Assembly: GCA_031292195.1 (NCBI GenBank)
Contig: JARLHP010000198.1
Location: 432-64,431, forward strand
DNA from: Syntrophobacteraceae bacterium
Lineage (GTDB): Bacteria; Desulfobacterota; Syntrophobacteria; Syntrophobacterales; Syntrophobacteraceae
DNA: 64,000 nt
Direction: 5' to 3'
Each line of letters opens with the position of its first letter. Position 1 is the stretch's first letter. A program made the translations under genes and the position numbers. This document shows, piece after piece, positions 5,418 through 35,781 of the stretch. The notes under the pieces are model-generated. The model saw nothing but the letters and a program-made list of their open reading frames with translations. It was not told the DNA's origin and made no database searches.

Positions 5418-5418
5418 C

Positions 5419-9430: not shown

Positions 9431-9479
9431 CAAAAGGGGCGCCCGGCCGGCCAAAAGGCTCAATGACCCCGCCTTATCC

Positions 9480-16815: not shown

Positions 16816-17514
16816 TTGGAAACCGTTGTTCTTGCCTGCAACACCATTCGGGATGAAATTGAAAAGGCCGCGCTGGACACGCACTGCCCTTACCGTTTTG
16901 CATGGGTCGAATCGGGGCTGCACCTCGTGCCCGGATCCCTGCGCCTGAGGCTCCAGGAAGAGCTGGACAGGATGAACGGCGCGCAGAGAGTGCTTCTGGC
17001 TTTCGGCATCTGCGGCGGCGCCGTGACGGGACTAAAGACCGGGAATTTCCAGTTGGTCATACCGCGGGTCGACGACTGCATCACCCTGCTCCTCGGGTCG
17101 GCGGAAATCAAGCGGCGCTGCGCCGGCCGGGGCGGCGTCTATTTTCTTACCAGGGGCTGGCTGGAGGGAGAAGCAAACATCTGGAAGGAATACCATGCGA
17201 CCCTGGCCCGTTTCGGTCCGGAAAGGACCGAACGTATCTACCGAAAAATGCTGGCGCATTACAAATTCCTGGGACTTATAGACACCGGGGCTTACGAACT
17301 ATCAGACCTGCTGCCCCGGGCCCGGGAGATCTGCGCCGCCCTGCAACTGGAGCTTCTCACCCTGGAGGGGCAGGACCAATACCTCAGGCGTCTTCTCCAG
17401 GGGCCCTGGGATGAAGATTATTTCGCCACAATCCCCCCGTTCACCACTGTGGAGCTGACCGACCTGTGTCTTGATTCCTCGGCGCCTGTCCGGCAAATCC
17501 AGGCCGGAGTGTAG
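16816..17514 (+). CDS. DUF1638-family protein (associated with corrinoid methyltransferase systems)
   Basis: VVLACNTIRDEI...LAFGICGGA...IPRVDDCITLLLGS pattern as in DUF1638. Immediately precedes the RACo gene. Confidence 0.7.
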   Translation: METVVLACNTIRDEIEKAALDTHCPYRFAWVESGLHLVPGSLRLRLQEELDRMNGAQRVLLAFGICGGAVTGLKTGNFQLVIPRVDDCITLLLGSAEIKRRCAGRGGVYFLTRGWLEGEANIWKEYHATLARFGPERTERIYRKMLAHYKFLGLIDTGAYELSDLLPRAREICAALQLELLTLEGQDQYLRRLLQGPWDEDYFATIPPFTTVELTDLCLDSSAPVRQIQAGV

Positions 17515-17527
17515 AGGGAGCCCCCAA

Positions 17528-19261
17528 TTGCCGCAAGTAAGCTTCAACGGCCATAAATTCACCCTGGAGGCCGAGCGGGGCGAAACCCTGCTCTCCTGCA
17601 TACGACGCGGCGGTCTCAAAGCCGAGTCCACGTGCGGAGGGCGCGGGGTGTGCGGCAAATGCCGCGTTACGGCGCAGGGTGAATTGAGTCCGCCAGACGA
17701 CGACGAACGCCGAGTCCTGGAAGGCCTGCCGGCCGAGGTCCGCCTGGCGTGCAGAGCCAGAGTCGCCGGCGACGTTTCCGTCAGCCTGGACGATTCCTGG
17801 ACTCGACTCCAGGCCGCCTCCGGTTTCGAATTTCGCGAGGTCGCCCTCGACAGTCCCGTAAAGCGCGCCCTTTTGCCGGAAAAGGGCCGCGACCCTGCCC
17901 CCTACGTCGAAACCCTTCCCTTCGGGGTCTTCGACCCGCGTCTTCTCAATGAGATTGCCGGATGGAACGCCAACAGCAGCAAGCCTTCGGCCATCCTGTT
18001 TGAAAACGAGGCCATCGACGTTCGCTTCGACGCGGCCCCGGTCCTTGGCGCCGCGGTGGACGTGGGTACAACCAGCCTTTCCCTTTGCCTGTTCGACCTG
18101 GAGAGCGGCGAAAACAAGGGCTGCAGTTCGGCCCTCAATCCCCAGACCGCCTACGGCGGCGACGTCATAACGCGCATAGATTATTGCCGAAAGGAGCGGG
18201 AGGGCCTGTCGGTCCTGCGTTGGGCCCTGATCGAACAACTGGGGGTGATGCTGGACGAGACTCTGGGGCCTGACCTCAGCCGGGACCAGGTCTATCTGAT
18301 GAGCGTTGCCGCAAATTCCACCATGCTCCACATCCTGGCGGGCGTTAATCCTGTGTCCCTGGCCCTGGCGCCTTTCCGCCCGGTTTTCTTAAAGCCCCTG
18401 GTGGTGGAAGCGGAGCGCTTCGGCCTCCCCATAGCCCCGCGGGGCAGGCTCCTACTCCTACCGGGGGCCGCGGCCTATGTGGGCGCGGATATCATCGGGG
18501 GCCTCGCGGCCATCGATTACCGCTCCATGCCCCCCTGCACTCTTTTCATCGACATCGGGACCAACGGCGAAATAGTACTGATAGAAAACTCCGAGCGGTT
18601 GGTCGCCACATCCTGCGCCATGGGACCGGCGCTGGAAGGCATGAACATCTCCTGCGGCTGCCGCGCGGTTCCCGGCGCCATCGACACGGTTACCGTGGGA
18701 GACGACATGGAACCGCGGTTTACGACCATAGGGGACTTACCGCCCATCGGCATTTGCGGGAGCGGCCTGGTCGATCTTGTCGCGGCGCTGCTTTCCACCG
18801 GCGCGATCACACCCGGCGGGGCGTTCAGCCCGGATAGAGGCGCAAAATTTGCCCACCGGCTGCGCGCGCAGCGCTATTATCTTACGGAAAACGTTTTTTT
18901 GAGTCAGAAGGACATTCGTCAGGTCCAGCTGGCCAAGGGCGCGGCCATAACCGGAATTCTAACGCTCCTGGGCGAAGCGGGCCGCTCGGTCTCGGACCTG
19001 CGGCAGATAATCGTGGCCGGTTCTTTCGGCTATCATTTAAACCCGGAAAGCCTCAAACGCATAGGACTGCTGCCCGAGAACTATTCGGGACCGATGACCT
19101 TCGTTGGCAACTCGTCTCTTTCCGGCGCCTCGCTGGTGGTACGCAACCGGGATATGCTAAACGATATGAAACGGTTGGCCTCCCGCATCCGGGTGCTCGA
19201 ACTGGGGTCTCAACCCGGTTTCAGCAGGAAGTTCATCTCGATGCTGGATTTTCCGGCTTAA
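17528..19261 (+). CDS. RACo-type corrinoid reductive activase ([2Fe-2S] ferredoxin + ASKHA ATPase, DUF4445)
   Basis: N-terminal plant-type ferredoxin motif STCGGRGVCGKCRV, then a long ASKHA-like body (AAVDVGTTSLS..., FIDIGTNGEIVL..., GICGSGLVDL...). TTG 17528 is preceded by AGGGAG; the track start 17471 overlaps the previous gene. Confidence 0.8.
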   Translation: MPQVSFNGHKFTLEAERGETLLSCIRRGGLKAESTCGGRGVCGKCRVTAQGELSPPDDDERRVLEGLPAEVRLACRARVAGDVSVSLDDSWTRLQAASGFEFREVALDSPVKRALLPEKGRDPAPYVETLPFGVFDPRLLNEIAGWNANSSKPSAILFENEAIDVRFDAAPVLGAAVDVGTTSLSLCLFDLESGENKGCSSALNPQTAYGGDVITRIDYCRKEREGLSVLRWALIEQLGVMLDETLGPDLSRDQVYLMSVAANSTMLHILAGVNPVSLALAPFRPVFLKPLVVEAERFGLPIAPRGRLLLLPGAAAYVGADIIGGLAAIDYRSMPPCTLFIDIGTNGEIVLIENSERLVATSCAMGPALEGMNISCGCRAVPGAIDTVTVGDDMEPRFTTIGDLPPIGICGSGLVDLVAALLSTGAITPGGAFSPDRGAKFAHRLRAQRYYLTENVFLSQKDIRQVQLAKGAAITGILTLLGEAGRSVSDLRQIIVAGSFGYHLNPESLKRIGLLPENYSGPMTFVGNSSLSGASLVVRNRDMLNDMKRLASRIRVLELGSQPGFSRKFISMLDFPA

Positions 19262-20917: not shown

Positions 20918-21622
20918 ATGAGCAGGAAAGAACGAATCCTGGTCATCGATGATGATAAAAAGCTGAACAGACTGCTCAGTGAATATCTTTCTCCTTTTGG
21001 ATATGAAGTCCTTACGGCTGCAAGTCCCGAGGAAGGCCTGCGGTATCTCAAAACTCATCCCCCGGAGCTTATCATTCTGGACATAATGCTCCCGGATGTA
21101 AACGGGTTCGAACTGTGCAAGATCATACGGGAAAATCATGCAATCCCCATTATAATGCTTACCGCCCGCGGGGAAGTTACCGACCGCATCGTAGGCCTTG
21201 AACTCGGCGCCGACGATTACCTTTCCAAACCGTTTGAACCCAGGGAACTGGTCGCGCGCATCCAGGCCGTGCTCCGCCGGGCTGTCGGCGCTCCCAGGCC
21301 TCAGGTCCGCTCCTTCGGAAGGCTCAGTATCGACTCCGGCAAACGCAAAGCCTTACTGGACGGTCAACCCCTTTCTCTAACGACCAATGAATTTGCCGCT
21401 CTCGCGCTTCTGGCCAGAAATGCGGGCAGGGTGCTCGACCGCGATCAGTTGCTCCAGGAGCTTCGAGGTATCGACAGCGAAGCCTTCAACCGCTCGGTGG
21501 ATATAACCATCAGCCGGTTGCGGCAAAAACTCGGGGACGACCCCAAGGACCCCTCGTTTATAAAGACTGTCTGGGGAGCAGGATATCTTTTCGTTGCGGA
21601 GGACCCGCGCAATGATATTTGA
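20918..21622 (+). CDS. OmpR/CpxR-type response regulator
   Basis: REC domain (ILVIDDD...IILDIMLPDVNG...LTARG...KPF) plus a winged-helix output (...VDITISRLRQKL...IKTVWGAGYLF). Confidence 0.9.
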   Translation: MSRKERILVIDDDKKLNRLLSEYLSPFGYEVLTAASPEEGLRYLKTHPPELIILDIMLPDVNGFELCKIIRENHAIPIIMLTARGEVTDRIVGLELGADDYLSKPFEPRELVARIQAVLRRAVGAPRPQVRSFGRLSIDSGKRKALLDGQPLSLTTNEFAALALLARNAGRVLDRDQLLQELRGIDSEAFNRSVDITISRLRQKLGDDPKDPSFIKTVWGAGYLFVAEDPRNDI

Positions 21623-21866
21623 CAGACTCGCCGGCCCATTGCGCTCGATACATACCCGTTTGCGGGATCTTCCCTTCATATTCGAACCATTTTACAGGGT
21701 CGATCGTTCCCGCTCCAAGGAATCCGGAGGCTTCGGCCTCGGTCTTAGCCTCTGCAAAGCAATTATGGAGGCCCACAACGGTTCGATCTCCGTTCAAAGC
21801 GTCGTGGGAAAAGGGACAACCTTCGAACTTCACTTCCCTCGCAAACCAGCCGAGAAGCTTTCATGA
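21612..21866 (+). pseudogene. Sensor histidine kinase remnant (start codon region fused to the last ~65 codons of HATPase_c)
   Basis: ATG 21612 overlaps the regulator's stop as in intact RR-HK operons. The product is only MIFDRLAGPLRSIHTRLRDLP + FIFEPFYRVDRSRSKESGGFGLGLSLCKAIMEAHNGSISVQSVVGKGTTFELHFP (G2 box onward). TM, HAMP, HisKA and N/G1 boxes are absent. Confidence 0.7.
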
Positions 21867-22706: not shown

Positions 22707-23003
22707 TCGATCCCTCTATCTGAAATACGTTACGGTAGAATAGATTCCGGCGTCATTTAGCGGCGCCGGCGTTCCGGTCGCGGGCCACGTCGTTTACGGC
22801 ACGGCCGCCCCGCGATCCGAATCCCGCAGGGGTGCGGGGGGCTCAGCTCCCCGCTCTTTTGACCTTCCTGAATGCAACACCATTGCAAACGCCACTTCCG
22901 GTCCCTTTATATCACTTGCAATAAATTTATATAATTGCGAAAAAGAAATTCGAAGAGACAATGCAACCCGCATCCGCAAACTGCTCCAGGCTGTTGATAA
23001 CCT

Positions 23004-26000
23004 ATGGAATTGGATCACTTCATATCGAAATGCGTTGTTTTGGACCTGGAGGCGGGAAGTAACAGGATTTTCAAGATCGGAGCGATCCTCGGGGACACGG
23101 TTTTTGAAAAAGAAAAATTCGATATCGGGCCGGCCCTGAAAGAACTCGACCGGTTTGCCGCCCCGGCTGACTTTTTGCTCGGCCACAACCTGCTCGGGCA
23201 CGATCTTCCCATCCTGAGAAAAGCCAACCCGGCCCTGAACATTTTCGACAAGCCGGTCATCGATACCCTTTTTCTATCCCCCCTCGCCTTTCCGGAAAAT
23301 CCCTATCATCGCCTGGTAAAAGACTACAAGCTGGTAAAAGACGCCCTGAGCGATCCCGTTGCCGACTCTCGAATCGCACTTTCGCTGTTTTGCGACCAGT
23401 GGGAAAAGTTTTCCAAAATGGCTGCGGACGGCTATTCCGACATTCTCTCCTTCTATCGCTATTGCTTTCTGTCGGCAGTTAAAGACGGCCAACCGGACTT
23501 TTCGGGCATCTCCGCCTTTCTCCAAATATCAGGCGCCCATGATTTGGGTTCGCAGGAAGCCCGGGCCGTCTTTACAAGGCATGTCTCAGAGCAGGTATGC
23601 CGCACGGCCCTCCGGGAGCTTTTCGCGGATGCGCCCGACCCCGGCGAAAAAACGCCTGCCCTCTCCTATGTACTGGCCTGGCTGAGGGTGGCGGGCGCAA
23701 ACTCAGTCCTCCCCCCTTGGGTGAGAAAACGTTTCCCCGCGATTTCCACCATCGCGGGCAAACTCCGTGACGTCCCCTGCGGCCACGCCGACTGCTCCTG
23801 GTGCCGGGTGACTCATGATTCCAGCGAACAACTCAAACGTTTTTTCGCCTTTTCCTCCTTTCGCGATAAACCCGCCGGCCCGACCGGTCAAAGCCTCCAG
23901 AAAGCAGTGGTCGATGGCGGTATGGCAGGTCGTCCCCTGCTTGCCATTTTCCCCACCGGGGGAGGCAAATCGATCTGCTACCAGTTACCCGCCTTGGTGC
24001 GGCATTATCGCCGAGGGGCCCTCACCATCGTCATCTCGCCGCTTCAGGCCCTCATGAAGGACCAGGTCGACAACCTCGCCTCCAGGACGGGCACGCCCTA
24101 TGCCGCAGCCCTGAACGGACTCCTCACTCCCCCTCAAAGACGTGATGTCCTGGAGCGAACCGCCCTTGGGGATGTGGCCCTGCTCTACGTCGCCCCCGAG
24201 CAGTTCCGAAACGACTCGTTTCGAAAAGCGATCGCCCAGAGGGAAATCGGCGCCTGGGTCTTTGACGAAGCCCATTGCCTGTCGAAGTGGGGACATGATT
24301 TTCGGCCCGATTACCTTTATGCCGGGCGGTTCATTCGGGAATATTCCGCGGAGCAAACCACCCCCATGGCTCCGGTTTCCTGCTTTACGGCAACCGCCAA
24401 GCAGGAAGTGATCGAAGAGATAATAGAATATTTCAGGCGCGAAACCGGCCAGGAACTCGAACTTTTCCAAGGCGGACTGGAGCGCGAAAACCTGCACTTC
24501 GAAGTGCGGACCTGCACCCGAAGCGAAAAACTTGAAACCATCCATTTGGTTTTGGCCGAACACCTGCCCGAAAGCCTCTCGGGTGGGGCCATAGTCTACG
24601 TGGCCACCAGGCGCAACGCGGATCTCACCGCCCAGTTCCTCAAATCCCGGGGCTGGCCGGCCGCAGCGTTTCATGCCGGCCTTGACCCTTCGGTAAAAAA
24701 TCTTGTTCAGGAACAGTTTCTGGCCGGAGATCTTCAGGTCATAGCAGCCACAAACGCCTTCGGAATGGGAGTAGACAAAAGCGATGTGCGCCTGGTTCTC
24801 CATGCCGACATCCCCGGCTCGCTGGAAAGCTACATCCAGGAAGCGGGCAGGGCCGGCCGGGACCTTCGCGATTCCAAATGCGTTCTGCTCTACGACGAAC
24901 AGGATATCGAGACCCAATTCAAACTGGGGGCAAGGTCGGAGCTAAGCCGCAAGGACATCGCCCAAATCCTGAGGTCCATAAGGAGAGCCCGGAAGGAGGG
25001 CTCGGAAGATGTGGTACTCACAGCCGGAGAAATCCTTCGCCAGGAAGATCTGGATACCAGCTTCGACGCCGGCGACTCAACGGCGGAAACGAAGGTCAAA
25101 ACCGCTATCGCCTGGCTCGAAAGGGCCAGGTTCCTGGAGCGAAATGAAAACCACACGCGGGTCTTCCAGGGCAGGGTCCTGGTCCAAAACCTGGAGGAGG
25201 CCGAAAAAAGAATTGCCGGACTAAATCTGTCCGCTACCCAGAAGACCAGGTGGCTGGCCATTCTTCGCGAAATCATGAATGCTCCCCGGGACCGGGGTAT
25301 GAGCGCCGATTCTCTGGCCGAACTGAGCGAATTTGAAAAGGGGGCCGCCGGCCTCAATGGACCCGGGAAGGAAACCCCCTCCCAGCGCGTAATCCGCACC
25401 CTGCACGACATGGCGGTGGCCGGTCTTATCGAAAAGGGCCTGGTTCTAAGCGCCTACGTGCGCTACAAGGTAAAGAGCCACTCGCACCAGGTGCTCGAAA
25501 ACAGTTGCCGCATCGAAAATGAAATGCTCAAGATCATGAGGGAGGAAATCCCGGATGCGGCCGATCTGGGCTGGCTCGACCTTTCGCTCGGAAAAATCAA
25601 CAGCCGTATCAAAAACCAGGCCCCGGAGTGCAGCGTCGATTCCCTGCGGTCCATCCTCATGAGCATCAGCATGGACGGCAAAGGATTTGGCGGCGGGAAG
25701 GCAGGCCTGCAATACCGGCATATCTACGGAGATTTCTACAAGGTAAAGCTCAATCTCGACTGGGACTCCCTCCTCGCCATGGCCCGCAAGCGGCAGAAAA
25801 TCGCCAGGGCCATTCTGGATGGAATCTTTTCGCAGATCCCCTCCGATACCCCTCCCGGCGCCGATCTCCTGGTCAGCTTTTCCAGTGAGGAACTGGCCAA
25901 AACCTTTCAAGCCAACTTATTTCTAGCCAATGAAGATGTCCTTACGGCCATCGACCGGGGGCTCCTTTTCCTCCACGAGCAACGAGCGATCATCCTGAAG

Positions 26001-28190
26001 CAGGGCTTGGCGGTCTTCCGCCAGGCCATGTCCATTCGAATTCTTCCTCGGGAAGGCAGGAGAGGATATTCCAAAAGCGACTATGAGCCCCTTTCTCATT
26101 ATTACCGGGAAAGAATTTTCCAGGTCCACGGCATGAATGAATATGCCCGGCTGGGCGCCCGGGAAATCGTCAAAGCCCTGGAACTGGTGCTCTCGTATTT
26201 CACCTTGAGCAAAGCCGAATTTATCCGGCGTTATTTTCCCGGAAGAAAGGAAATGCTGGAGAGGGCGACCAGCCAGGAGTCCTACCGTAAAATGGTGGAA
26301 GACCTGGCCAACCCGGCGCAAAGTCAGATCGTATCGGGAGATGAAATCACCAACACCCTCATTCTGGCCGGCCCCGGGGCCGGCAAGACAAAGGTCGTCA
26401 TTCACCGCTGCGCCTACCTCATTCGCGTGCAAAGGGCCAATCCGGAAAGCATCCTGATCGTCTGCTTCAATCATTCGGCGGCCATGGAGCTGCGGCGAAA
26501 ACTCGTCCGGCTCATCGGAGAAGATGCGGCGGGCGTAACCGTCCAGACCTACCACGGGATCGCCATGCGCCTCACCGGAACCTCTTTTTCCGATCTCATG
26601 GAAAAAGGAACGGAGCAGCAAGCCCTGTTCGATCAGGTGATTGCGGACGGTGTCAGGCTGCTCCAGGGGGATGCGGATCTTCCGGGCTGGGAGCCGGACG
26701 CTGTCCGCGACAGGCTCCTAGGCAGGTTCCGCCACATTCTGGTCGATGAGTACCAGGATATCGACCAGAAACAGTACGACCTGGTGTCCGCCCTGGCCGG
26801 TCGAACCGAAAGGGACCCGGATACCAGGCTGACCATCTGCGCGGTGGGAGACGACGACCAGAATATTTACGCCTTTCGGGGCTCCAATGTCCGGTTTATC
26901 CTCAAATTTCAGGAAGACTATGAGGCCCGGATTCACTACCTGACGGAAAACTACAGGTCCACCCGAAACATCATCGATGCGGCCAACGCCCTTATCGCCC
27001 GGAATAAAGACCGCATGAAAACCGGTCATCCCATCAGGATAAACACGTCTCGAATCATCCTGCCGCCCGGAGGAAAGTGGGAGGAATTGGACCCGGTGTC
27101 CCGAGGCAGGGTCCGGATCATCGATGTGCCCAACGCTGCCGGCCAGGCGGCCGCCCTCCTGTCCGAACTCCACCGGATGGCCGCTCTTCAAAGCGATTTC
27201 CAATGGTCCGAGGTGGCCGTCCTCTCCAAAACCAGGGAGAGCCTCCACGAGGTCAGGGCATTTTGTGAACGCGGCGCCATTCCCGTAACCTGGACACTGG
27301 GCGGGAACCATCCCAATCTTTCCAGGATAAGAGAAATCGCCTCATTTCTGGGCGAGTGCAAATCCCGCCGCTCCGATTTTCTAAGAGCGAGCGACCTGGA
27401 AATGCTCCTGGAAAACATCACGGGTGAGCCGCGGGAAAACCCCTGGTGGAAGCTGCCGCGCTCGATTCTCACCTCCTGGAGGGAAGAAACCGGCGACGCC
27501 CGACTCCCCGTTTCCACGGCCATCGACCGTATCTACGAAGAACTGGCCGAGGTGCGGCGCGACCAGCGCATCGGAAACGGGCTATTTTTGAGCACCATTC
27601 ACGGAGTAAAGGGGCTGGAGTTTCCCCATGTTTTCATTCTCGACGGAAACTGGAAAAACCGCCCGTCGCCGCAAGCTTTGGAAGAGGAGCGAAGGCTCTT
27701 GTATGTCGCCATGACGCGGGCCCGGGAGACGCTTTCCCTCTTTGCCCGCGCGGATTGTATCAATCCCCACCTCTCAGCTCTTTCGGCAGACTTCGCCCTA
27801 AGAATAAAGGCAGCTTCCTCCCCGCCCCCCGATCTATCGGGCGCCCGCTACGAAACGTTAAGCATGAAGGATTTCATCCTGGGTTTTGCCGGCCGTTTCC
27901 CGGAAAATCACCCTATCCACCGCCAACAAAAAAAGCTCGGCCCCGGCGCCCCTCTTTCCATCCAAGCCAGGGGAGACCAGCTCTTCCTCTGCGACTCCGA
28001 ATCACATCCCGTTGCCAAACTCTCGCTAAAAGCCAGGGATTCATGGGCTGGACGCGTCGACAAGATCAGGTCGATCAGCCTGCTGGCAATGGTTCAGCGC
28101 ACTAAAGACGACGAGCGGCAGGATTTCCGAAAGTCCTGCCGGACCGATTCCTGGGAAATACCGTGGGCGGAAGTGGTCCTTGGGCCATGA
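23004..28190 (+). CDS. 1728-aa fusion: DnaQ-like DEDD 3'-5' exonuclease + RecQ-family SF2 helicase + UvrD/PcrA-family SF1 helicase + ~125-aa C-terminal tail
   Basis: Exonuclease motifs: VVLDLEAG, LLGHNLLGHDLPIL. RecQ motifs: FPTGGGKSICYQLPA, VFDEAHCLSKWGHDFRPDY, CFTATA, ATNAFGMGVDKSDVRLVLH, QEAGRAGRD. UvrD motifs: ILAGPGAGKTKVV, ILVDEYQDIDQKQYDL, VGDDDQNIYAFRG, YLTENYRSTRNIIDAAN, LSTIHGVKGLEFPHVFIL, LLYVAMTRARETL. Single uninterrupted ORF. Confidence 0.9.
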   Translation: MELDHFISKCVVLDLEAGSNRIFKIGAILGDTVFEKEKFDIGPALKELDRFAAPADFLLGHNLLGHDLPILRKANPALNIFDKPVIDTLFLSPLAFPENPYHRLVKDYKLVKDALSDPVADSRIALSLFCDQWEKFSKMAADGYSDILSFYRYCFLSAVKDGQPDFSGISAFLQISGAHDLGSQEARAVFTRHVSEQVCRTALRELFADAPDPGEKTPALSYVLAWLRVAGANSVLPPWVRKRFPAISTIAGKLRDVPCGHADCSWCRVTHDSSEQLKRFFAFSSFRDKPAGPTGQSLQKAVVDGGMAGRPLLAIFPTGGGKSICYQLPALVRHYRRGALTIVISPLQALMKDQVDNLASRTGTPYAAALNGLLTPPQRRDVLERTALGDVALLYVAPEQFRNDSFRKAIAQREIGAWVFDEAHCLSKWGHDFRPDYLYAGRFIREYSAEQTTPMAPVSCFTATAKQEVIEEIIEYFRRETGQELELFQGGLERENLHFEVRTCTRSEKLETIHLVLAEHLPESLSGGAIVYVATRRNADLTAQFLKSRGWPAAAFHAGLDPSVKNLVQEQFLAGDLQVIAATNAFGMGVDKSDVRLVLHADIPGSLESYIQEAGRAGRDLRDSKCVLLYDEQDIETQFKLGARSELSRKDIAQILRSIRRARKEGSEDVVLTAGEILRQEDLDTSFDAGDSTAETKVKTAIAWLERARFLERNENHTRVFQGRVLVQNLEEAEKRIAGLNLSATQKTRWLAILREIMNAPRDRGMSADSLAELSEFEKGAAGLNGPGKETPSQRVIRTLHDMAVAGLIEKGLVLSAYVRYKVKSHSHQVLENSCRIENEMLKIMREEIPDAADLGWLDLSLGKINSRIKNQAPECSVDSLRSILMSISMDGKGFGGGKAGLQYRHIYGDFYKVKLNLDWDSLLAMARKRQKIARAILDGIFSQIPSDTPPGADLLVSFSSEELAKTFQANLFLANEDVLTAIDRGLLFLHEQRAIILKQGLAVFRQAMSIRILPREGRRGYSKSDYEPLSHYYRERIFQVHGMNEYARLGAREIVKALELVLSYFTLSKAEFIRRYFPGRKEMLERATSQESYRKMVEDLANPAQSQIVSGDEITNTLILAGPGAGKTKVVIHRCAYLIRVQRANPESILIVCFNHSAAMELRRKLVRLIGEDAAGVTVQTYHGIAMRLTGTSFSDLMEKGTEQQALFDQVIADGVRLLQGDADLPGWEPDAVRDRLLGRFRHILVDEYQDIDQKQYDLVSALAGRTERDPDTRLTICAVGDDDQNIYAFRGSNVRFILKFQEDYEARIHYLTENYRSTRNIIDAANALIARNKDRMKTGHPIRINTSRIILPPGGKWEELDPVSRGRVRIIDVPNAAGQAAALLSELHRMAALQSDFQWSEVAVLSKTRESLHEVRAFCERGAIPVTWTLGGNHPNLSRIREIASFLGECKSRRSDFLRASDLEMLLENITGEPRENPWWKLPRSILTSWREETGDARLPVSTAIDRIYEELAEVRRDQRIGNGLFLSTIHGVKGLEFPHVFILDGNWKNRPSPQALEEERRLLYVAMTRARETLSLFARADCINPHLSALSADFALRIKAASSPPPDLSGARYETLSMKDFILGFAGRFPENHPIHRQQKKLGPGAPLSIQARGDQLFLCDSESHPVAKLSLKARDSWAGRVDKIRSISLLAMVQRTKDDERQDFRKSCRTDSWEIPWAEVVLGP

Positions 28191-28395: not shown

Positions 28396-28470
28396 GTACT
28401 AAACGGTCCTGACACATTTCAACTTTATCGCATTATAGCATGAATGCATGAATTTCGCGTGTTGCACCCT

Positions 28471-28522
28471 TCGCTGCGCTGCCTGATGGATACAACGTGA
28501 TCGAAACCACCGGAAATGCCCC
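28471..28522. repeat. 52-nt conserved box, copy 1 (right border of junction copy A)
   Basis: tcgctgcgctgcctgatggatacaacgtgatcgaaaccaccggaaatgcccc versus 40779-40830 tcgatgcgcggcctgctggatacaacgtgatcgagaccaccggagatgcccc. Flanks on the far side are unrelated. Confidence 0.5.
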
Positions 28523-29470
28523 AGTCTGCCGTTCGCACACTGCCATCCCCCGGGGACTACTACGTGATCCGGGGCCATGTGAGAGGGGTCGGGCTTTGGT
28601 GTGGATCAGCAGGCATACCAGTTTGCCAACGGCCCGTTTGGGAGGGCGTGGGGTGTGCTCCACACTTGTGAAATTATCAAATTCCACCCGATGTCGCCTG
28701 AAGTGTTCACTGACTGCACCCTTCATTTTTACAATTTCCAATAAGCTTTAAGTTTCCAGGCAATAGGTGATCTATCAGATGATGGCGCAAGCTTTGCAAT
28801 TACGCAGCCCTCCTGGAGGCTGTTTCGGAAACTCGCCGCTTTTCCCTGTGCGAACTTCCCGTGGGCCTGAGGCAGCCATCAGGCCGTGGCACCGACATTA
28901 GAGAGCTGCGCGCGCCTGAGTTCCTGGAAGGAGGCGGTTTTCAGCGAGGGATAGGAGGGTTTACAATTCGGTCAGGAGCAAACTTCAAAGTGCTAAACGT
29001 GGACGAACGGCCCGCATCGGAACGTTGGACCCTTACAAGAAAACTGTTCCTGTTGCTGCTGGCGATATTTCCGCGGGCATCCGCTATCATTGTCACTCTA
29101 ATTGTTGAGCAACGTGCGTACGCCATCCTGGAGGCACCGGACAGGGCGAAACTCCTCGTGGACAGCTTTACGATCCGCGCACAAACCCGAAGAGATCGAC
29201 GTCTCAGATGCGGTCGGAGAGTCGGCGGTTACACAGACAGGCCGCTGTGCCGCACAATAGAAAAGCTGTGAATCAGTGAGCAACTCTATTGAAATGCTCC
29301 CCGGGGGAGTCCGGGGATTCCGGTGCGTGAAAGGCGTGACCTCATTTCTCACTAAAGTTTTGAGGCAGCCAATCCGACATAAGATTTGGAGTGTTGTTTC
29401 AAGAACGGCGGCTCATTTGCGCGATGTCGGGGAGCTCTCTCTCTCTTGCACAGTTGATAAGGTTCGATCT

Positions 29471-32400
29471 ATGAAATGGTTTCCTCAGCTTGGCTTGCGC
29501 CATCGATCCGTAATGATTGTACTGTTGGCCGGTATTCCCACTTTGACGCTGTTGCTCTATTCAGGCATGGAACTGCGTCGTCATGCCGTTCTCCATGCCA
29601 GGCAAGTTGCACTTCACTATGCAAGAGATCTTGCCAGAACCCATGAACGGATTGTCAACAACACCCATCAGGTTCTTTCAACCCTCTCGCAGTTACCCCC
29701 GATCCAGGGTCTTGATCCGGTTATGTGCAACAAGGTTTTCAAGGCTCTTCTGAAAGAATCTCATGTCTATACGGCATTGTTGGCCAGCAGGCCGGATGGA
29801 ACTGTTTATTCCAGTGCCCCGGCGATTACTGGACCGTTAAATGTTGCTCATGAGGGGTGGTTCCGGCATGGCGTCGAGACCAGGCATTTTGCCATGGGTC
29901 GCTATGAGATTGGCAAAATCTCCGGAAAAGCTGCAATGGTTCTAGCCCAGCCGGTTTTTGACGATACGGGAGAACTGAAAGCAGTAGTCGCCGCAGGAAT
30001 AGATCTCGACTGGCTAAGACAAACTCTGGCCAGGACACAGCTTCCCCAAGGCACGACTTTCAGCGTCACCGATTCGACCGGCGCCGTGCTCGCCCGCTTC
30101 CCCAACAACGAAAAGTACGCAGGAAAATCGATAGACGAGCTGCCTATATTCAGGCGCATGTCAAACCTGCGGGAAGGGATTGCCGAGGGAAAGGGAATCG
30201 ACGGGGTTCAGAGAATCTATGGTTTTGTTCCTTTGATTCATGCCCCGCGGCTAGTCCAGGTGAGAGTCGGAATTCCGATGACAGTGGCCTTCGCGAAGGC
30301 TAATCGAAGTCTTATTTTCAGCATTGTCCTATTTGTCATTATCATTATGCTAACACTTGCTCTGGCCTGGATTGGGGCGGGGCATTTCGTAGTGCGGCCC
30401 ATTGTTAATCTCAGCAAATTTGCCGCCTGTGTTTCAGATCGAAATCTTAGTATCCGTTGTGGTCCGGCTTATACGAGTGGTGAATTGGGAGTTCTGGAGC
30501 GCGCTTTCGATCTTATGGCCGAATCGCTTGAGCATCGCGAAGCTGAGCGCAAAAGAGCTGATGATCTATCCCAAATAAAGGGCAGGGCTCTGAGCTTGCT
30601 CAGCCGGTGCAATAAAGTCGTTGTTCGTGCTGTTAATGAGCCGGAGCTTTTGCATGTTGTTTGCCGGCAGATAATTGAAGTCGGAGGGTATCGTTTTGCG
30701 TGGGTCGGTTTTGCCGAAGATGATGAAGATAAGACCATCCGTCCGGTGGCGCATTGCGGATACGAGGATGGATATCTTGAAACAATCAAGGTCAATTGGG
30801 CTGAGGCTGAATCGGAAACAAACCGTAGCGCGGGAGCAATTGCCATTAGAACGGGGGAACCGGTGGTGAGTCAGAATATTTTATCCGACCCCAAATTTAC
30901 CGCATGGCGCGAAGAAGCCGCCAAACGCGGTTATGCCTCTTCCATTGCTCTTCCAATGCGTGATGATCAAGGGCGCTCGTTCGGTGTATTGAGAATTTAC
31001 GCAGGGGAACCTGATGCTTTCGGTTCCGAAGAAATAAATCTTCTCGAAGAACTTGCGGAAGATTTGGCCTACGGAATACGTACTTTGCGCATGCGGGATC
31101 AGCGTAATAGAGCCGAGAAGGCTCTGCTGGAACAAGAACATTACTACCGGTCTCTTATATTCAATATGCATGACGATATCATGGTAGTTGATAAGTCATT
31201 CGTAATTAAAGACATTAACAAGGATATAATGGGCACAACGGGTTTACGGCGAGAGGATATGATCGGTCGCCATTGTTTCGACGTTGCCCATGGAGCCGAT
31301 GAGCCTTGTAGTAAAAGAGGAGACGCCTGTCAGCTTCAAGAGGTATTTAAAACGGGTATACCCCAAATCTGTCGCCATGAGCACAACACGCAGGATGGAT
31401 CGAAAGTATGGGTTGATATTCTTTTTTCAGCTTTGAAAGATGATAGCGGTGAAATTACTCATGTCATTGAAGCGTCACGCGATGTAACCAAGGAAGTGGA
31501 ATTGCGCCAACAATTTCGTCAGGCACAGAAAATGGAAGCTATTGGTACATTGGCTGGAGGCATAGCACATGACTTCAACAACATCATTGGCATAATTCAA
31601 GGCTATTCGGAACTTTTGACGCTCGATATGCCTGAAGATTCGGACGGGAATTTATATGTCCAAAACATTTTGACGGCTGGACTTCGTGCAAAAGAACTCG
31701 TGAAACAAATACTTGCCTTTAGCCGGAAGGGCGAGCAGGAAAGGCTGCCTCTTCGGCTGAGCGTAATGATACAGGAGTCGCTTAAGCTTCTACGGGCAGC
31801 ATTGCCGTCTACAATTGAGATTCGCCAGGATTTGTCTACCGCGCGTAGGGTCGACATCTTGGCCGATGCAACCCAAATTCACCAGGTGCTCATGAACCTT
31901 TGTACGAACGCCGCCCACGCCATGGGCGAGAACGGAGGCGTCCTTACCGTCAGTTTATCGGAAGCGGAGTTTTCGGCCGTCGATTTAAACCACATTCCGG
32001 ATACGAGTCCCGGGCGCTACGTCTGCCTTGAGGTCGGGGACACCGGCCATGGTATGGATCGGGCCACCATTGAGAGGATATTTGAACCCTACTTTACCAC
32101 CAAGGGCCTGGGAGAAGGAACCGGGCTCGGGTTGGCCGTGGTGCACGGCATCGTGAAAAGCCATGACGGGGCAATAACGGTCGAAAGCGAACCCGGAAAA
32201 GGCACTTCATTTCGGGTATTCTTTCCGGTCGTCGAGAGCATTGGCGCCCCCGGCACTAAATCCGACTCGGAATATACTCAGATCCCCAGAGGGAAAGAGC
32301 ATATCCTCCTGGTCGATGATGAGGCGAGATTGGCTAACGCTGTGCAGCTAATGCTCGAGCGGCTTGGCTACAGGGTCTCACTGTGTAGGGACGGTATGCA

Positions 32401-32653
32401 CGCCCTCGATGTTTTCAGCTCACACCCGGAGAGCTACGATTTGGTCATCACCGACCAGACGATGCCTCACATGACGGGTTTCCAACTTGCCCGCAAGCTA
32501 ATCGAAATTCGACCGCGGATACCGATCCTGCTTTGTACCGGGTTTTGCGATTCCAGCACACAGGAACGCGCAAAAGCCTTGGGCATCCGCAATGTCCTGA
32601 TGAAGCCACTGTCGATACAGCAAATGGCGGAGACCATTCGCCGCGCCTTATAA
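29471..32653 (+). CDS. Hybrid sensor histidine kinase (periplasmic Cache-like domain, HAMP, GAF, PAS, HisKA, HATPase_c, REC)
   Basis: TM-bounded periplasmic domain. GAF (FAWVGFAEDDEDKTIRPVAHCGY...IALPM...FGVLRIYAGEP), H-box (GGIAHDFNNIIGII), G-boxes (DTGHGM, GTGLGLAVVHGIV), REC (ILLVDDE...VITDQTMPHMTG). Start at ATG 29471 (MKWFPQ...), not the track start 29276. Confidence 0.9.
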   Translation: MKWFPQLGLRHRSVMIVLLAGIPTLTLLLYSGMELRRHAVLHARQVALHYARDLARTHERIVNNTHQVLSTLSQLPPIQGLDPVMCNKVFKALLKESHVYTALLASRPDGTVYSSAPAITGPLNVAHEGWFRHGVETRHFAMGRYEIGKISGKAAMVLAQPVFDDTGELKAVVAAGIDLDWLRQTLARTQLPQGTTFSVTDSTGAVLARFPNNEKYAGKSIDELPIFRRMSNLREGIAEGKGIDGVQRIYGFVPLIHAPRLVQVRVGIPMTVAFAKANRSLIFSIVLFVIIIMLTLALAWIGAGHFVVRPIVNLSKFAACVSDRNLSIRCGPAYTSGELGVLERAFDLMAESLEHREAERKRADDLSQIKGRALSLLSRCNKVVVRAVNEPELLHVVCRQIIEVGGYRFAWVGFAEDDEDKTIRPVAHCGYEDGYLETIKVNWAEAESETNRSAGAIAIRTGEPVVSQNILSDPKFTAWREEAAKRGYASSIALPMRDDQGRSFGVLRIYAGEPDAFGSEEINLLEELAEDLAYGIRTLRMRDQRNRAEKALLEQEHYYRSLIFNMHDDIMVVDKSFVIKDINKDIMGTTGLRREDMIGRHCFDVAHGADEPCSKRGDACQLQEVFKTGIPQICRHEHNTQDGSKVWVDILFSALKDDSGEITHVIEASRDVTKEVELRQQFRQAQKMEAIGTLAGGIAHDFNNIIGIIQGYSELLTLDMPEDSDGNLYVQNILTAGLRAKELVKQILAFSRKGEQERLPLRLSVMIQESLKLLRAALPSTIEIRQDLSTARRVDILADATQIHQVLMNLCTNAAHAMGENGGVLTVSLSEAEFSAVDLNHIPDTSPGRYVCLEVGDTGHGMDRATIERIFEPYFTTKGLGEGTGLGLAVVHGIVKSHDGAITVESEPGKGTSFRVFFPVVESIGAPGTKSDSEYTQIPRGKEHILLVDDEARLANAVQLMLERLGYRVSLCRDGMHALDVFSSHPESYDLVITDQTMPHMTGFQLARKLIEIRPRIPILLCTGFCDSSTQERAKALGIRNVLMKPLSIQQMAETIRRAL

Positions 32654-32748: not shown

Positions 32749-35700
32749 ATGGTAGATAAAAACGAATTCGTGAAGAATATTTTGGACTCCCTTCCGCATC
32801 CCTTCTATATCATTGACGCTAATGACTACACGCTTAAAATGGCCAACTCCGCCGCTGCTCCGGATGGCCTGCCCCCGAATGTGACCTGTTTCCAGCTGAC
32901 ACACGGGACGGATAAACCCTGCGAAGCTCCCCGGCATTGCTGCCCATTGGAAACGATTAAACGAACCGGGAAGTCTGTGACTATCGAACATGTCCATTAT
33001 GATATGGAAGGAAACGCCAGGCAATTCGAGATCCACGCTCATCCGGTATTTGACAGCAACGGAAACGTCGTTCAGATCGTTGAATGCATGTTGGATATCA
33101 CCGAGCGCAGGAAAGCGGAGGAAGAGCTGGATTTATATGCTGAAATTACCAGGAATATTGCTGAAGGCGTAGTCCTTGCCAGGGTTAGTGACACTGAGAT
33201 TGTTTACGCCAACCACAAATTTGAAGAGATGTTCGGCTATGACCCGGGCGAGCTGATTGGGAAACCTATTTCCGTAGTCAATGCCCCCGGCGACAAATCT
33301 CCGGAAGAGCTGGCAAAGATGATTCAGAAACCCCTGAAGGAAAAGGGTACGTGGCAGGGTGAGGTTCATAATATCAAGAAGGACGGAACGCCTTTCTGGT
33401 GCAATGTCACAGTCTCTACGTTTGATCACTATAAGTACGGGGAGGTCTGGGTTTGGGTTCCTAGAGACATCACTGAGCGCAGGCAGACCGAGGATGCGCT
33501 GCGCAAGAGTGAGACCATGTACCGAACGCTCGTCGAGAACATCCCTCAAAAGGTCTTTATGAAGGATACGGACTCCCGCTATGTATCCATCAACGAGCAT
33601 TTTGCCAGGGACCTCGGCATTCGAGACGCAGAAGTTTTTGGTAAAACAGACTACGATTTTTTCCCCCGGGAGCTTGCCGACAAATACCGGAGGGACGATA
33701 AGCGAATCATAAAGACGGGTGTGACTGAGGATCTCGAGGAACACTACATGATGGAAGACCAGGGAATGTGGGTCCAGACTATCAAAGCTCCCGTCAAAGA
33801 CGTTAATGGCAAGGTCGTCGGTGTTTTCGGAATTTTCTGGGATATCACCGATCGCAAGAGGGCTGAAAATGCGCTGCGCGAAAGCGAGGAGCGTTTCTCC
33901 AGATTCTTCCGGGCTTCTCCGGTCGGCATCACTATCAGCAGATTGTGCGATGGTCAATGTATCGAGGCAAATGATGCTTTTCTCCGCTTATTCGGGTACG
34001 AACGAGAGGAAGTCATCGGCGGAAATCTGTTTGAATTGAAAAAGTGCATTGATCCTAAAGAACGGGAAACATTGACACAAAGACTTACGGAGCAGGGAAG
34101 GGTCGAGGCTTTTGAAACCCGCCTCCGCTTGAAATCCGGCGAGATTATGTACGCTATCACCTCGGCGGAAATCATCGAACTGGCGGGACGGCAATGTATT
34201 CTAAGCCTCACTTATGATATCACCGCCCGCAAGCGAGCGGAGCAGGCTCTTGTTCTGGAGCGAAACAAGTTTCGTCGCTTTCTCGACTCTTTGCCCTTCG
34301 GGGTCTACATAGTTAATGATCAGTACAATATCGAGTACGTCAACTCCGTACTATCGAGCGATTTTGGTCCTATAGAAGGACGCAAATGCCATGACTATTT
34401 TCATGGTCTTCTCGAACCTTGTGATTGGTGTAAGAACAGCGAAGTTTTCGACGGTAAAACGGTGCAATGGGAGTGGTTCTCGGAGAAGACGGGCAAGACC
34501 TTCCACCTCATCGACAGCCCTGTCTATTCCGTGGATGATCGAATTTCCAAGATCGAGGTATTTTTCGACATCACCGAGCGCAAGCGGGCGGAAGCTGAAA
34601 AGATCGAGATGGAACAGCGCATTCAAAAGCTGCAAAAGGCGGAAAGCCTCGGTCGCATGGCCGGCTCTATCGCCCATCATTTTAACAACAAGCTGGGCAC
34701 GGTGTTGGGAAACCTTGAACTGGCTCTCTATGATCTGCCTGAAGAATCAGAAGTTCGCGCGACTATAGTTGAATCCATGAAAGCCGCGCGTCAAGCGGCT
34801 GATATCAGTCAACGGATGCTGATGTATCTCGGGCAGGCAACCGGGCGCTATGAGCCCGTCGACCTTGTGGATACAATCCGTGAATCCCTCCAACTCTCCA
34901 GCCTGTCCGTTCCCCGGCATGTGCGTTTAAAGACCGATTATCCGCTGATGAGACCGATTATCCAGGGGAATAATGCCCAGATAAAGCAGATCCTTGCCAA
35001 CCTGGTTTCAAACGCGGTGGAGGCCATAGGCCAAAATGATGGTGATATCACTGTGGCAATACAAGTGACGCAGAGCGAGAAGATCAAAAGATTGCGTTTT
35101 TTCCCCGTTGATTGGGAGCCGAAGGCGGAACAATATGTCTGCCTTTCGGTATCCGATACAGGCTGTGGCATGGATTTGACTACCATCGAGAAAGTCTTTG
35201 ACCCGTTCTTTTCGACCAAATTTCCGGGGCGCGGTCTGGGCTTGTCCATTCTCCTGGGGTTGGTGCGCACGCATGCTGGAGGAACAACAGTCGTGAGCGA
35301 GCCTGACCGAGGCGCCACTTTCAGGGTCTTCTTCCCCTTGTGCGCCCTTGAAGCAGTTCCGCCCGTAAAGGAAGAACCTCTTGCCTCCGGACCGGCACAG
35401 AAAGGAGGATTGGTGCTACTGGTAGATGATGATCCCGGGATCCGCAAAATGGCCGAATCCATTCTTGAGAAAATGGGTTATGGGGTACTTGGGGCTTCCA
35501 GCGGGGCCCAAGCCTTGAAATTCTTCGCGGAAGACCCTTACCGGGTCCGATTAGTGATCACCGATCTCACCATGCCGGGAATGGACGGGTGGCAGATCCT
35601 GACGGCCCTGCGAAAAATCCGGCCGAACATTCCGGTGGTTCTTGCCAGCGGATACGACGAGGCGCACGCCATGAGCAGAGACTATGCACACCAGCCCGAT

Positions 35701-35781
35701 GTATTTTTACACAAGCCTTACTCGATGAGTGAACTCAAGTCTGCAATCGATGAGGCTTTGCAGGCGGTGAGCAGGGGGTAA
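32749..35781 (+). CDS. Multi-PAS hybrid sensor histidine kinase (about five PAS, HisKA, HATPase_c, REC), cytoplasmic
   Basis: Repeated DITERK/DITDRKRAE PAS linkers. H-box GSIAHHFNNKLGTV, G-boxes SDTGCGM and GRGLGLSILLGLV, REC LVLLVDDDP...VITDLTMPGMDG. No TM segment. Confidence 0.9.
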   Translation: MVDKNEFVKNILDSLPHPFYIIDANDYTLKMANSAAAPDGLPPNVTCFQLTHGTDKPCEAPRHCCPLETIKRTGKSVTIEHVHYDMEGNARQFEIHAHPVFDSNGNVVQIVECMLDITERRKAEEELDLYAEITRNIAEGVVLARVSDTEIVYANHKFEEMFGYDPGELIGKPISVVNAPGDKSPEELAKMIQKPLKEKGTWQGEVHNIKKDGTPFWCNVTVSTFDHYKYGEVWVWVPRDITERRQTEDALRKSETMYRTLVENIPQKVFMKDTDSRYVSINEHFARDLGIRDAEVFGKTDYDFFPRELADKYRRDDKRIIKTGVTEDLEEHYMMEDQGMWVQTIKAPVKDVNGKVVGVFGIFWDITDRKRAENALRESEERFSRFFRASPVGITISRLCDGQCIEANDAFLRLFGYEREEVIGGNLFELKKCIDPKERETLTQRLTEQGRVEAFETRLRLKSGEIMYAITSAEIIELAGRQCILSLTYDITARKRAEQALVLERNKFRRFLDSLPFGVYIVNDQYNIEYVNSVLSSDFGPIEGRKCHDYFHGLLEPCDWCKNSEVFDGKTVQWEWFSEKTGKTFHLIDSPVYSVDDRISKIEVFFDITERKRAEAEKIEMEQRIQKLQKAESLGRMAGSIAHHFNNKLGTVLGNLELALYDLPEESEVRATIVESMKAARQAADISQRMLMYLGQATGRYEPVDLVDTIRESLQLSSLSVPRHVRLKTDYPLMRPIIQGNNAQIKQILANLVSNAVEAIGQNDGDITVAIQVTQSEKIKRLRFFPVDWEPKAEQYVCLSVSDTGCGMDLTTIEKVFDPFFSTKFPGRGLGLSILLGLVRTHAGGTTVVSEPDRGATFRVFFPLCALEAVPPVKEEPLASGPAQKGGLVLLVDDDPGIRKMAESILEKMGYGVLGASSGAQALKFFAEDPYRVRLVITDLTMPGMDGWQILTALRKIRPNIPVVLASGYDEAHAMSRDYAHQPDVFLHKPYSMSELKSAIDEALQAVSRG

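Follow-up and report, generated by a model that had tools for sequence, protein, structure and literature searches.

The DNA considered here is a stretch of 64,000 nucleotides (the window below, always meaning the whole stretch) from contig JARLHP010000198.1 of the Syntrophobacteraceae bacterium assembly GCA_031292195.1. Its forward strand carries an unbroken open reading frame (ORF) at 23004..28190, which starts with an ATG at 23004 and closes with a stop codon ending at 28190, and the encoded protein of 1728 amino acids (aa) joins an exonuclease-like domain, a RecQ-type helicase motor, a linker, a UvrD-type helicase motor and a tail. Stop codons account for about 3.6% of random codons at a GC content of about 57%, which gives by arithmetic a chance of about 1e-27 for an open run of 1728 codons, and the ORF is therefore not a product of chance. 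A protein with 100% identity (P0001) has been deposited from a Syntrophobacteraceae metagenome-assembled genome (MAG) under the name 'RecQ family ATP-dependent DNA helicase', and colinear homologues measure 1700-1800 aa. An initial annotation, made from the letters of this DNA, had described one uninterrupted 5.2-kb ORF here; the frame was borne out, and every motif that it quoted was recovered in the translation where it had been placed. The three-module architecture that it proposed is likewise real: judged from sequence profiles, from conservation and, for the exonuclease fold, from a structural model, the protein is a single chain of three modules whose catalytic signatures all look intact.

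The first of the two motors is a superfamily 2 (SF2) core of the RecQ family (aa 276-645, 23829..24938, forward strand), which carries motifs 0 to VI together with an aromatic-rich loop, CLSKWGHDFRPDY, and is recognised by Pfam, NCBIfam and PDB searches. Pfam places DEAD at aa 298-471 (E 1.8e-24) and Helicase_C at aa 522-619, and the motifs include FPTGGGKSICYQLPA (aa 316-330), VFDEAHCLSKWGHDFRPDY (aa 419-437) and QEAGRAGRD (aa 612-620). The NCBIfam model TIGR00614 (recQ_fam) gives 285.4 bits, above its cutoff of 219.8, a family-level match by which the module is assigned, at the domain level, to the RecQ family. The RecQ equivalog TIGR01389 remains below its cutoff (336 versus 640 bits) and is covered at profile positions 4-344 of 591 only. 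In the PDB, aa 299-635 align with residues 30-345 of Escherichia coli RecQ (1oyw, E 2e-65), and the cores of RECQ5, BLM, RECQ1 and WRN align as well, the last over aa 270-638 (E ~2e-44). The alignment with E. coli RecQ stops at residue 345, exactly before the zinc-binding, winged-helix and HRDC regions; Pfam finds no RQC or HRDC domain, and the translation holds no cysteines, and so no Cys cluster, past aa 640. The module is therefore a RecQ-family motor without the C-terminal apparatus of RecQ.

The second motor is a superfamily 1A (SF1A) core of the UvrD/PcrA/Rep type (aa 1106-1585, 26319..27758, forward strand), supported by Pfam and PDB matches and with motifs I to VI invariant. Pfam identifies UvrD-helicase/AAA_19 at aa 1116-1306 (E 1e-42) and UvrD_C at aa 1524-1579, with bit scores of 147 for PF00580 (cutoff 23), 82.6 for PF13361 and 74 for PF13245, and the module aligns with UvrD (2is1, E 2e-40), UvrD1, PcrA and Rep in the PDB. 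Its motifs include ILAGPGAGKTKVV (aa 1120-1132), ILVDEYQDID (aa 1245-1254), VGDDDQNIYAFRG (aa 1281-1293), TENYRST (aa 1314-1320), STIHGVKGLEFP (aa 1530-1541) and LLYVAMTRAR (aa 1565-1574). On these profiles the module belongs, at the domain level, to the UvrD/PcrA/Rep group; the orthologue-level models of UvrD, PcrA and Rep are missed by a wide margin (best scores: PRK11773 at 196 versus 965 bits, pcrA at 195 versus 911), and the AddA and RecB models match the UvrD core only, far under their cutoffs. E. coli RecQ and UvrD are thus the best sequence matches of the two cores (1oyw and 2is1) and share all helicase motifs with them, but their equivalog cutoffs are not reached, and the UvrD core is flanked here by a novel linker and a novel tail.

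Conservation was assessed in two sets, namely 30 full-length homologues (51-75% identity) and a more diverse set of 26, taken from loci and plasmids, that reaches down to 30% identity and includes Bacteroidota members. In both sets the key catalytic residues of the two motors are invariant, and in the second the flanking residues are near-invariant, the invariant features being the Walker A GKS/GKT, the DEAH, the DE-x-QD and the motif VI arginines. The invariant motifs are GGGKS, DEAH, WGHDFRPDY and QEAGRAGRD in the RecQ part and GPGxGKT, DEYQD, GDDDQ, NYRS, H..KG.E. and YVA.TRA in the UvrD part, with DEYQD replaced by DEAQD in Bacteroidota members. Helicases of both the RecQ and the SF1A UvrD/PcrA/Rep groups translocate 3'->5' on single-stranded DNA (ssDNA).

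The motors are bridged by a family-specific linker (aa 646-1105, 24939..26318), for which there was no Pfam or significant PDB match, a profile search of the PDB giving only a marginal match to the helix-turn-helix protein HigA. An AlphaFold2 (AF2) model of the linker, with a mean predicted local distance difference test (pLDDT) score of 68, contains approximately four winged-helix-like units of helix-helix-helix-strand-strand followed by long helices. Foldseek returned nothing below E 0.04 for this model, the weak matches being the tandem winged-helix proteins RPC62, ESCRT-II, MukF and ORC, and the linker may tentatively be described as a winged-helix-like array. Its sequence is well conserved (mean column identity 67%), and a search of 1.84 billion representatives with the linker profile gave 1102 matches at E<=1e-3, 803 at E<=1e-10 and 369 at E<=1e-30, each match being a cluster at 50% identity. 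In roughly full-length proteins (~1600-1900 aa) the match lies at about positions 600-1160, and many shorter matches are cut at the protein start or end and look like fragments. This fixed place in full-length proteins makes the linker a signature of the architecture and indicates that the architecture is stable. Similarly, the conserved C-terminal tail (aa 1586-1728, 27759..28187) has no Pfam or PDB match and contains seven invariant residues (H1639, S1674, W1681, R1699, W1717, P1720 and E1723).

At the N-terminus, the exonuclease core (aa 1-135, 23004..23408) is predicted from an AF2 model, Foldseek comparison and conservation to adopt a DEDD (DnaQ-like, RNase H-like) 3'-5' exonuclease fold, and is followed by an all-helical extension with a Cys knuckle, a putative metal site, that is seen in the alignments and the AF2 model (aa 136-275, 23409..23828). 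DEDD domains are 3'->5' exonucleases, which remove nucleotides from 3' ends. The motifs VVLDLEAG (aa 11-18) and LLGHNLLGHDLPIL (aa 58-71) mark the core. Pfam returned nothing for aa 1-299 even at E<=10 (PF00929 included), a phmmer search of the domain against the PDB gave nothing relevant, and a profile of the domain retrieved from 5.8 billion proteins only fragments of its own family, with no homologue carrying a precomputed exonuclease Pfam domain. A profile of 21 N-termini gave sub-threshold PDB matches to Plex9.1-type exonucleases (E 0.3-0.6) and to T7 DNA polymerase (E 1.7); the Plex9.1 alignment runs over GHN..D / DT, and GHN..D falls on the Exo II motif of Plex9.1. Comparison by hhalign with a hand-entered sequence of E. 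coli DnaQ gave a probability of 3% and aligned the Exo I motif only.

Structural comparison was more informative. The AF2 model of aa 1-275, built on an alignment of the N-terminal domain, has a pLDDT of 89.1 and a predicted template modelling score (pTM) of 0.88, and its best Foldseek match in the PDB is the TREX1 homologue Plex9.1 (9mrd, E 6.6e-4, prob 1.0), followed by Staphylococcus aureus DinG (9ii8, E 9.7e-4, 219 aligned columns). Further PDB matches comprise Nibbler and the exonuclease domains of Pol I, T7 polymerase and family B polymerases; most of the named matches have a prob of at least 0.9, and a few T7 polymerase chains are lower. Among the viral models of BFVD, nine matches were obtained at E<=1e-3, mostly polymerase exonuclease domains and RNase H-like proteins, and an entry named 'DEDdh 3'-5' exonuclease' appears lower in the list at E 5.8e-2 only. 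The E-values of these fold matches are modest (1e-3 to 3e-5). Taken with the model, they allow a DnaQ-type RNase H-like fold to be predicted with confidence in aa 1-275.

The acidic tetrad D14/E16/D67/D121 is invariant across both conservation sets, down to 30% identity, and would supply the four metal ligands of such an enzyme (Exo I D-x-E, Exo II D and Exo III D); H61-N62 of the GHN motif, D87-T88 and Y101-H102 are also invariant in the core. The fifth catalytic residue of the canonical enzymes (H-x4-D in DEDDh, Y-x3-D in DEDDy) is missing, position -5 relative to D121 being S or N and position -4 D or N, and the invariant H102 sits away from the canonical place. The exonuclease module of the initial annotation thus stands as regards the fold and the acidic tetrad, and lacks a profile match and the fifth residue. 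The conclusion is that a DEDD exonuclease fold and its metal-binding site are present; catalytic activity is predicted, and the chemistry may be atypical.

Alternatively, the domain could be an inactive DEDD fold that serves in DNA-end or nucleotide binding or in regulation, which would leave the protein a dual helicase/translocase only; this alternative concerns mechanism and is compatible with any biological role. The missing H-x4-D or Y-x3-D residue, the failure of any exonuclease sequence profile to detect the domain and the poorly modelled surroundings of the invariant Y101-H102 all speak for it. However, neither the GHN motif nor any of the four metal-ligand acids changes between 100% and 30% identity, which would be unexpected for a dead site, and the invariant H102 or the near-invariant D117 could act as the missing general base, so that an inactive domain is considered distinctly unlikely. 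Two features of the N-terminal region deserve a separate remark. The stretch SPLAFPENPYHRLVKDYKL (aa 92-110, 23277..23333) is the best-conserved part of the N-terminal region and near-invariant down to about 40% identity, yet it is the least confidently modelled, the pLDDT of the block at aa 101-110 being 59; it is perhaps a functional loop, for instance one that supplies the missing general base through H102 or contacts a motor. In addition, C259-x4-C264-x2-C267 is invariant and followed in most members by H271 (aa 259-271, window positions 23778-23816), and this C-x4-C-x2-C(-H) arrangement, lying just before RecQ motif 0, may be a metal knuckle standing in for the missing RQC zinc site.

Colinear homologues are found in the isolates Geopsychrobacter electrodiphilus, Tritonibacter scottomollicae, Pseudomonas sp. 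S30 and Azospirillum canadense, in the finished replicons pALVIN01 of Allochromatium vinosum and pTfr153 of Thiothrix, and in MAGs of Methylobacter, Chromatiaceae, Verrucomicrobia, Acidobacteriota, Nitrospirales, Caldilineaceae and Cyclobacteriaceae; the family spans at least eight phyla or classes. The distribution also bears on whether the ORF might be an assembly chimera, or a product of sequencing error, made up of distinct exonuclease, recQ and uvrD genes, an explanation that could draw on the evidently metagenome-assembled source and on the copy in Nostoc punctiforme pNPUN02 (L093, 7153-12171), where the homologous region is annotated as three consecutive ORFs named as RecQ family, UvrD-helicase domain and '3'-5' exonuclease'. 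The Nostoc ORF with the last of these names is actually the C-terminal piece of the UvrD part. Against this, full-length homologues with the same colinear arrangement number in the thousands and stem from independent samples, among them finished plasmids and isolate genomes, and the conserved linker bridges the motors at a fixed position, by which a chimera is effectively refuted and left vanishingly improbable. Several MAG loci (L007, L009 and L018) are without a full-length ORF, and the split or disrupted copies look like recurrent gene decay, with MAG assembly errors as a possible contributor. In the Tritonibacter scottomollicae locus (L011), a 1963-aa ORF (3990-9878) lies directly 5' of an enlarged family member of 1896 aa.

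The family is horizontally exchanged across phyla, as seen from identities that cut across taxonomy and from its presence on plasmids. For example, an Arenicellales (Gammaproteobacteria) protein is 73% identical to a protein of Caldilineaceae (Chloroflexota) and 72% to one of Nitrospirales, while the remaining gammaproteobacterial members share 43-65% identity among themselves. A tblastn search with the linker found 26 plasmid records (Rhizobium, Nostoc, Cereibacter, Paracoccus, Croceicoccus, Bacteroides and others), including conjugative and mobilizable plasmids; many of the 26 are megaplasmids or chromids, and 14 are typed as non-mobilizable. The same kind of search found no member in 50,697 phage records, and IMG/VR held one locus with a relative among 2.9 million contigs; a phage origin was rejected on these counts.

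It could be asked whether the protein serves mobile elements, whether in the establishment or replication of plasmids or integrative and conjugative elements, in anti-restriction or in competition with rival elements, with chromosomal copies as element remnants. The 26 plasmid records, conjugative and mobilizable ones among them, favour this, as do the ParA/ParG, SSB, integrase, transposase and H-NS genes that adjoin some loci. However, more than half of the plasmids (14/26) are typed as non-mobilizable, megaplasmids or chromids are numerous among the 26, genes for relaxase, the type IV secretion system or replication do not recur beside the gene, and the window itself lacks any flanking hallmark of an element (no tRNA, no notable repeats, and a GC content of 0.56-0.59 that is near the window mean). 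A role of this kind therefore seems very unlikely. An ORF with a KfrA_N domain (a DNA-binding domain of plasmid replication regions, E 1e-8; 297 aa, 41090-41980, reverse strand), about 13 kb downstream of the fusion gene, hints at a segment derived from a mobile element elsewhere in the window.

The gene stands alone. An all-against-all BLAST comparison of the ORFs from 25 loci found no recurrent neighbour or gene cluster, and the gene has no conserved partner across these loci. The surroundings are nevertheless often rich in defence or accessory genes: in six of 13 annotated contexts, defence-type genes lie within about 10 kb. These comprise an N6/N4 methyltransferase, an AAA_15/SMC ATPase, a UvrD helicase and a DUF429 protein in Geopsychrobacter; type I restriction-modification (RM) and NERD genes on a Desulfobulbaceae contig; a deaminase, SIR2 with HerA, Metallophos with SMC, IS110 and DDE transposases and an MmeI-type methyltransferase on a Geobacteraceae contig; type I RM and HNH genes on pALVIN01; WYL and type I-D CRISPR-Cas genes on pTfr153; and a large N6-methyltransferase and a helicase on pNPUN02. 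Toxin genes are close by in three further contexts of the 13 (PemK; HipA; RES with BrnT). Furthermore, a scan of 105 neighbouring proteins (up to three per side at 20 further loci) gave Pfam matches to McrBC, MvaI/BcnI, C5-methylase, AbiEi and DUF4011, two integrases and two transposases, alongside many metabolic genes, and strong PADLOC matches to PDC-S37 (one protein, at E = 0), Hhe, AbiEi/AbiEii, type IIG RM, PDC-M21A/B and IetA. This frequency, which has no random-gene baseline behind it, is suggestive of an association. Some of the contexts hold further details. Two unrelated loci (the Geobacteraceae contig, L086 20371-20634; Allochromatium pALVIN01, L088 6747-6995) each have a stand-alone WGR-domain protein of about 82-87 aa at a distance of about 7 kb or less from the gene, possibly by coincidence. 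In Geopsychrobacter, the DUF429 gene (L001 9268-10014) is preceded by genes for a separate UvrD-like helicase and the AAA_15/SMC ATPase and overlaps with the beginning of the fusion gene, which may be embedded in a multi-gene system in that genome only.

In the window, the neighbourhood is of another kind. The genes around the fusion encode a RACo-type reductive activator of corrinoid Fe-S protein (Fer2, Raco_middle and RACo_C_ter domains; 17471-19261, forward strand), an LTXXQ protein, an OmpR-type response regulator and a flavodoxin/4Fe-4S protein; upstream of RACo lies a radical SAM protein (14116-15408, forward strand). RACo and radical SAM genes would fit an anaerobe with corrinoid-dependent methyl transfer. 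Downstream, two unassigned small ORFs (28433-28741, reverse strand; 28861-29271, forward strand) separate the fusion gene from two very large hybrid histidine kinases (29276-32653, dCache/HAMP/GAF/PAS with receiver; 32749-35781, multi-PAS with receiver; both forward), beyond which lies a methyl-accepting chemotaxis protein with a dCache domain (36196-38109, forward strand). A forward ORF of 90 aa (21594-21866) overlaps the end of the response-regulator gene and matches only the C-terminal 61 aa (82%) of a 437-aa HAMP/HisKA/HATPase kinase in a related genome (L082 6136-7449), from which the kinase of this Cpx-like LTXXQ/response-regulator/kinase operon appears to have been largely deleted in the window. 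A promoter-like site, TTTATA-18-TATAAT (22906..22935, forward strand; 10 of 12 consensus positions), lies about 70 nt 5' of the ATG. The upstream gene is divergent, so the site fits a stand-alone transcription unit; it is a consensus match only and such sites are no more frequent in the region than in shuffles, which makes it weak evidence.

One flank of the gene is held in common with the locus of a 73%-identical orthologue, where the LTXXQ gene (58% identity), a small ORF, the response regulator (79%) and the kinase C-terminus (82%) recur, with the operon in the opposite orientation and different genes on the other side. The shared flank argues for residence in the lineage rather than recent island insertion. 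An island insertion was in any case unsupported, as there is no tRNA and there are no repeats of note around the gene, the GC content of the gene region (0.56-0.59) is close to the window mean with no break, and there is partial synteny with the relative. The gene thus appears to be a long-standing resident of the lineage that is transcribed on its own. The initial annotation had placed it at the border of an island-accretion hotspot with toxin-antitoxin modules. The hotspot fails for the immediate neighbourhood, with its signalling and redox genes and its shared flank; the toxin-antitoxin modules could not be confirmed, as the ten small or paired ORFs tested, a subset of the small ORFs in the window, gave no toxin-antitoxin family, which does not disprove them. 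Its suggestion of a defence role finds some backing elsewhere, where homologues lie near type I RM, CRISPR I-D, SIR2-HerA, type IIG RM, AbiE, McrBC and Hhe genes and on plasmids, whereas the neighbourhood in the window is ordinary.

These observations give room to another explanation, namely that the protein is a housekeeping or stress-induced enzyme of repair and replication-fork processing, whose benefit would lie in genome stability rather than in conflict with foreign DNA. A single chain would then do the jobs of RecQ, UvrD and ExoI/ExoX, including fork regression and restart, removal of RecA or RNA polymerase, and trimming of 3' flaps. The ordinary chromosomal neighbours in the window and in the closest relative, with their common LTXXQ/response-regulator flank, fit this explanation, as do the lack of an immunity or modification partner in the 25 loci, the very strong purifying selection on all active sites and the absence of the family from phages. 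Furthermore, WRN and firmicute DinG (PMC12525004) are exonuclease-helicase fusions for replication-stress tolerance, and DinG is the second-best structural match of the N-terminal domain. However, a repair enzyme would sit less easily with the patchy, taxonomically scrambled spread and cross-phylum identities above 70%, with the frequent plasmid-borne copies, with the recurrent RM, CRISPR, SIR2-HerA, toxin-antitoxin and transposase neighbours, with the split or decayed copies in some hosts, and with the missed equivalog cutoffs (336/640 bits for RecQ, 196/965 bits for UvrD). On balance this explanation appears unlikely, if by no means far-fetched.

Comparison with known systems helps to place the protein. 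Like WRN, it has an N-terminal 3'-5' exonuclease fold followed by a RecQ-family SF2 core in the same chain. WRN itself carries an RNase D/DEDDy-type exonuclease, an RQC region (zinc plus winged helix) and an HRDC domain. Full-length WRN (9hzg) aligns through the helicase core only and not through the exonuclease; its RQC and HRDC were not detected here, and it is without the SF1 motor, the winged-helix-array linker and a tail of this kind. The features expected of a WRN orthologue (RNase D-type exonuclease, RecQ core, RQC and HRDC) are thus not found together in the sequence, and the resemblance is one of convergent architecture, not orthology. The 'WRN-like' label of the initial annotation is accurate for the exonuclease fold and RecQ core, and overstated beyond them, given that only the helicase core aligns, that RQC and HRDC are absent and that the exonuclease is without its fifth residue.

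Firmicute DinG (S. aureus and Bacillus subtilis) also joins an N-terminal DEDD exonuclease to an SF2 helicase-like module, but its motor is of the XPD/DinG type and not RecQ, it has no second motor and it measures about 900 aa; it is a chromosomal replication-stress gene (PMC12525004). Like RecBCD, AddAB and AdnAB, the fusion brings two helicase motors and a nuclease together in one machine; the three known complexes also act as a barrier to foreign linear DNA. In them, the motors are on separate subunits and are all SF1, and the nucleases are PD-(D/E)xK enzymes; the fusion differs in being one chain, with an SF2 and an SF1A motor that are both expected to be 3'-5', and with a DEDD fold.

Among defence systems, PADLOC gives domain-level matches to DpdF (359 bits), PsyrT (285) and GajB (175), which concern the RecQ or UvrD cores. 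GajB, PsyrT/RqlH and DpdF are thus alike in their helicase cores, and homologues of the fusion often lie in defence-rich regions, but each match is to a single helicase core and none spans the protein. The partners GajA and PsyrA and the dpd cluster do not adjoin the gene, either in the window or at the 25 loci, and the protein does not belong to Gabija, PsyrTA or Dpd. None of Gabija, PsyrTA, Dpd, Nhi, Hna and Hachiman joins SF1 and SF2 motors with a DEDD fold, and the parallels that the initial annotation drew with Gabija, Nhi, Hachiman and Druantia are to be taken as analogies, not memberships. PADLOC v2 has no full-length or dedicated model for the fusion, and the fusion is not described in the full-text literature searched, outside which most subscription journals fall, and a targeted read of the polyvalent-protein paper (PMC5512222) gave no description of it either. 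The statement that no characterised member was known agrees with the literature searches and with these domain-level PADLOC matches.

How such a protein might work can be outlined from family precedent. It would be an autonomous, ATP-driven enzyme that unwinds and degrades DNA, with both motors moving 3'->5' on ssDNA. RecB and RecD, whose polarities are opposite, can set out together from a single DNA end; motors that are tethered and share one polarity could not run in parallel from a blunt duplex end in this way. Instead, each would take one of the two antiparallel strands at an internal entry site (a nick, gap, fork, D-loop or replication bubble, for instance), or the two would work one behind the other along a single strand. 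In both cases ssDNA would be reeled out and its 3' end passed to the N-terminal nuclease, while the winged-helix array may grip or wedge the duplex and so couple the motors.

An active DNA helicase-nuclease of this general kind is very probable. As for the role for which it is selected, an accessory and horizontally exchanged function in the surveillance or restriction of foreign or aberrant DNA, distinct from that of a housekeeping RecQ, is possible and close to evenly poised. The explanation as a whole, in which the ORF is an intact member of a widespread, uncharacterised single-gene family of autonomous unwind-and-degrade enzymes with a surveillance or defence role in the accessory genome, remains tentative and falls slightly on the doubtful side. 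Several points weigh against it. The exonuclease call depends on fold and motifs, no sequence profile being significant, and the replacement of the canonical general base (H or Y) by S, N or D means that catalysis may be atypical or absent. Four of the 13 contexts hold nothing defence-like, and the defence association, besides having no random-gene baseline, does not extend to the surroundings of the gene in the window, where signalling and redox genes adjoin it and one flank is common to the locus of the 73%-identical orthologue. Strong conservation would suit a repair enzyme just as well, as would the lack of a methylase, antitoxin or other self-protection partner. Moreover, the activity and role of the family members are predicted, and the two-strand mechanism is purely conjectural.

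A more specific form of the surveillance reading would make the protein a new single-gene system of immunity or of action against mobile DNA, in which SF2 and SF1A motors of the same polarity pull opposite strands apart from inside, starting at a nick, fork or replication bubble of the invading DNA, and an atypical DEDD nuclease without the usual H/Y takes the 3' ends. The winged-helix array and the tail would then gate the activity, so that the host chromosome is spared. We know of no helicase-nuclease that has been described as parting the strands of invading DNA from inside with two 3'-5' motors. This specific form is rather doubtful.

Helicase-nuclease machines are central to DNA repair (RecBCD, AddAB, WRN and DNA2) and to bacterial immunity (Gabija, Hachiman, Nhi and Cas3). 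Fusions of helicase and nuclease are known as a kind; the present family is large and unstudied, with an unusual architecture, an inferred function and an ordinary local context. Among the machines searched, none has been described that holds an SF2 RecQ motor, an SF1A UvrD motor and a DEDD nuclease in one chain. The public annotations seen read 'RecQ family ATP-dependent DNA helicase', by which the biology of the family is hidden and the RecQ counts of genomes are inflated. As a single gene without partners, it is directly testable, and, should its role lie in repair instead, bacteria would have in it a compact counterpart of the WRN/BLM plus UvrD toolkit.

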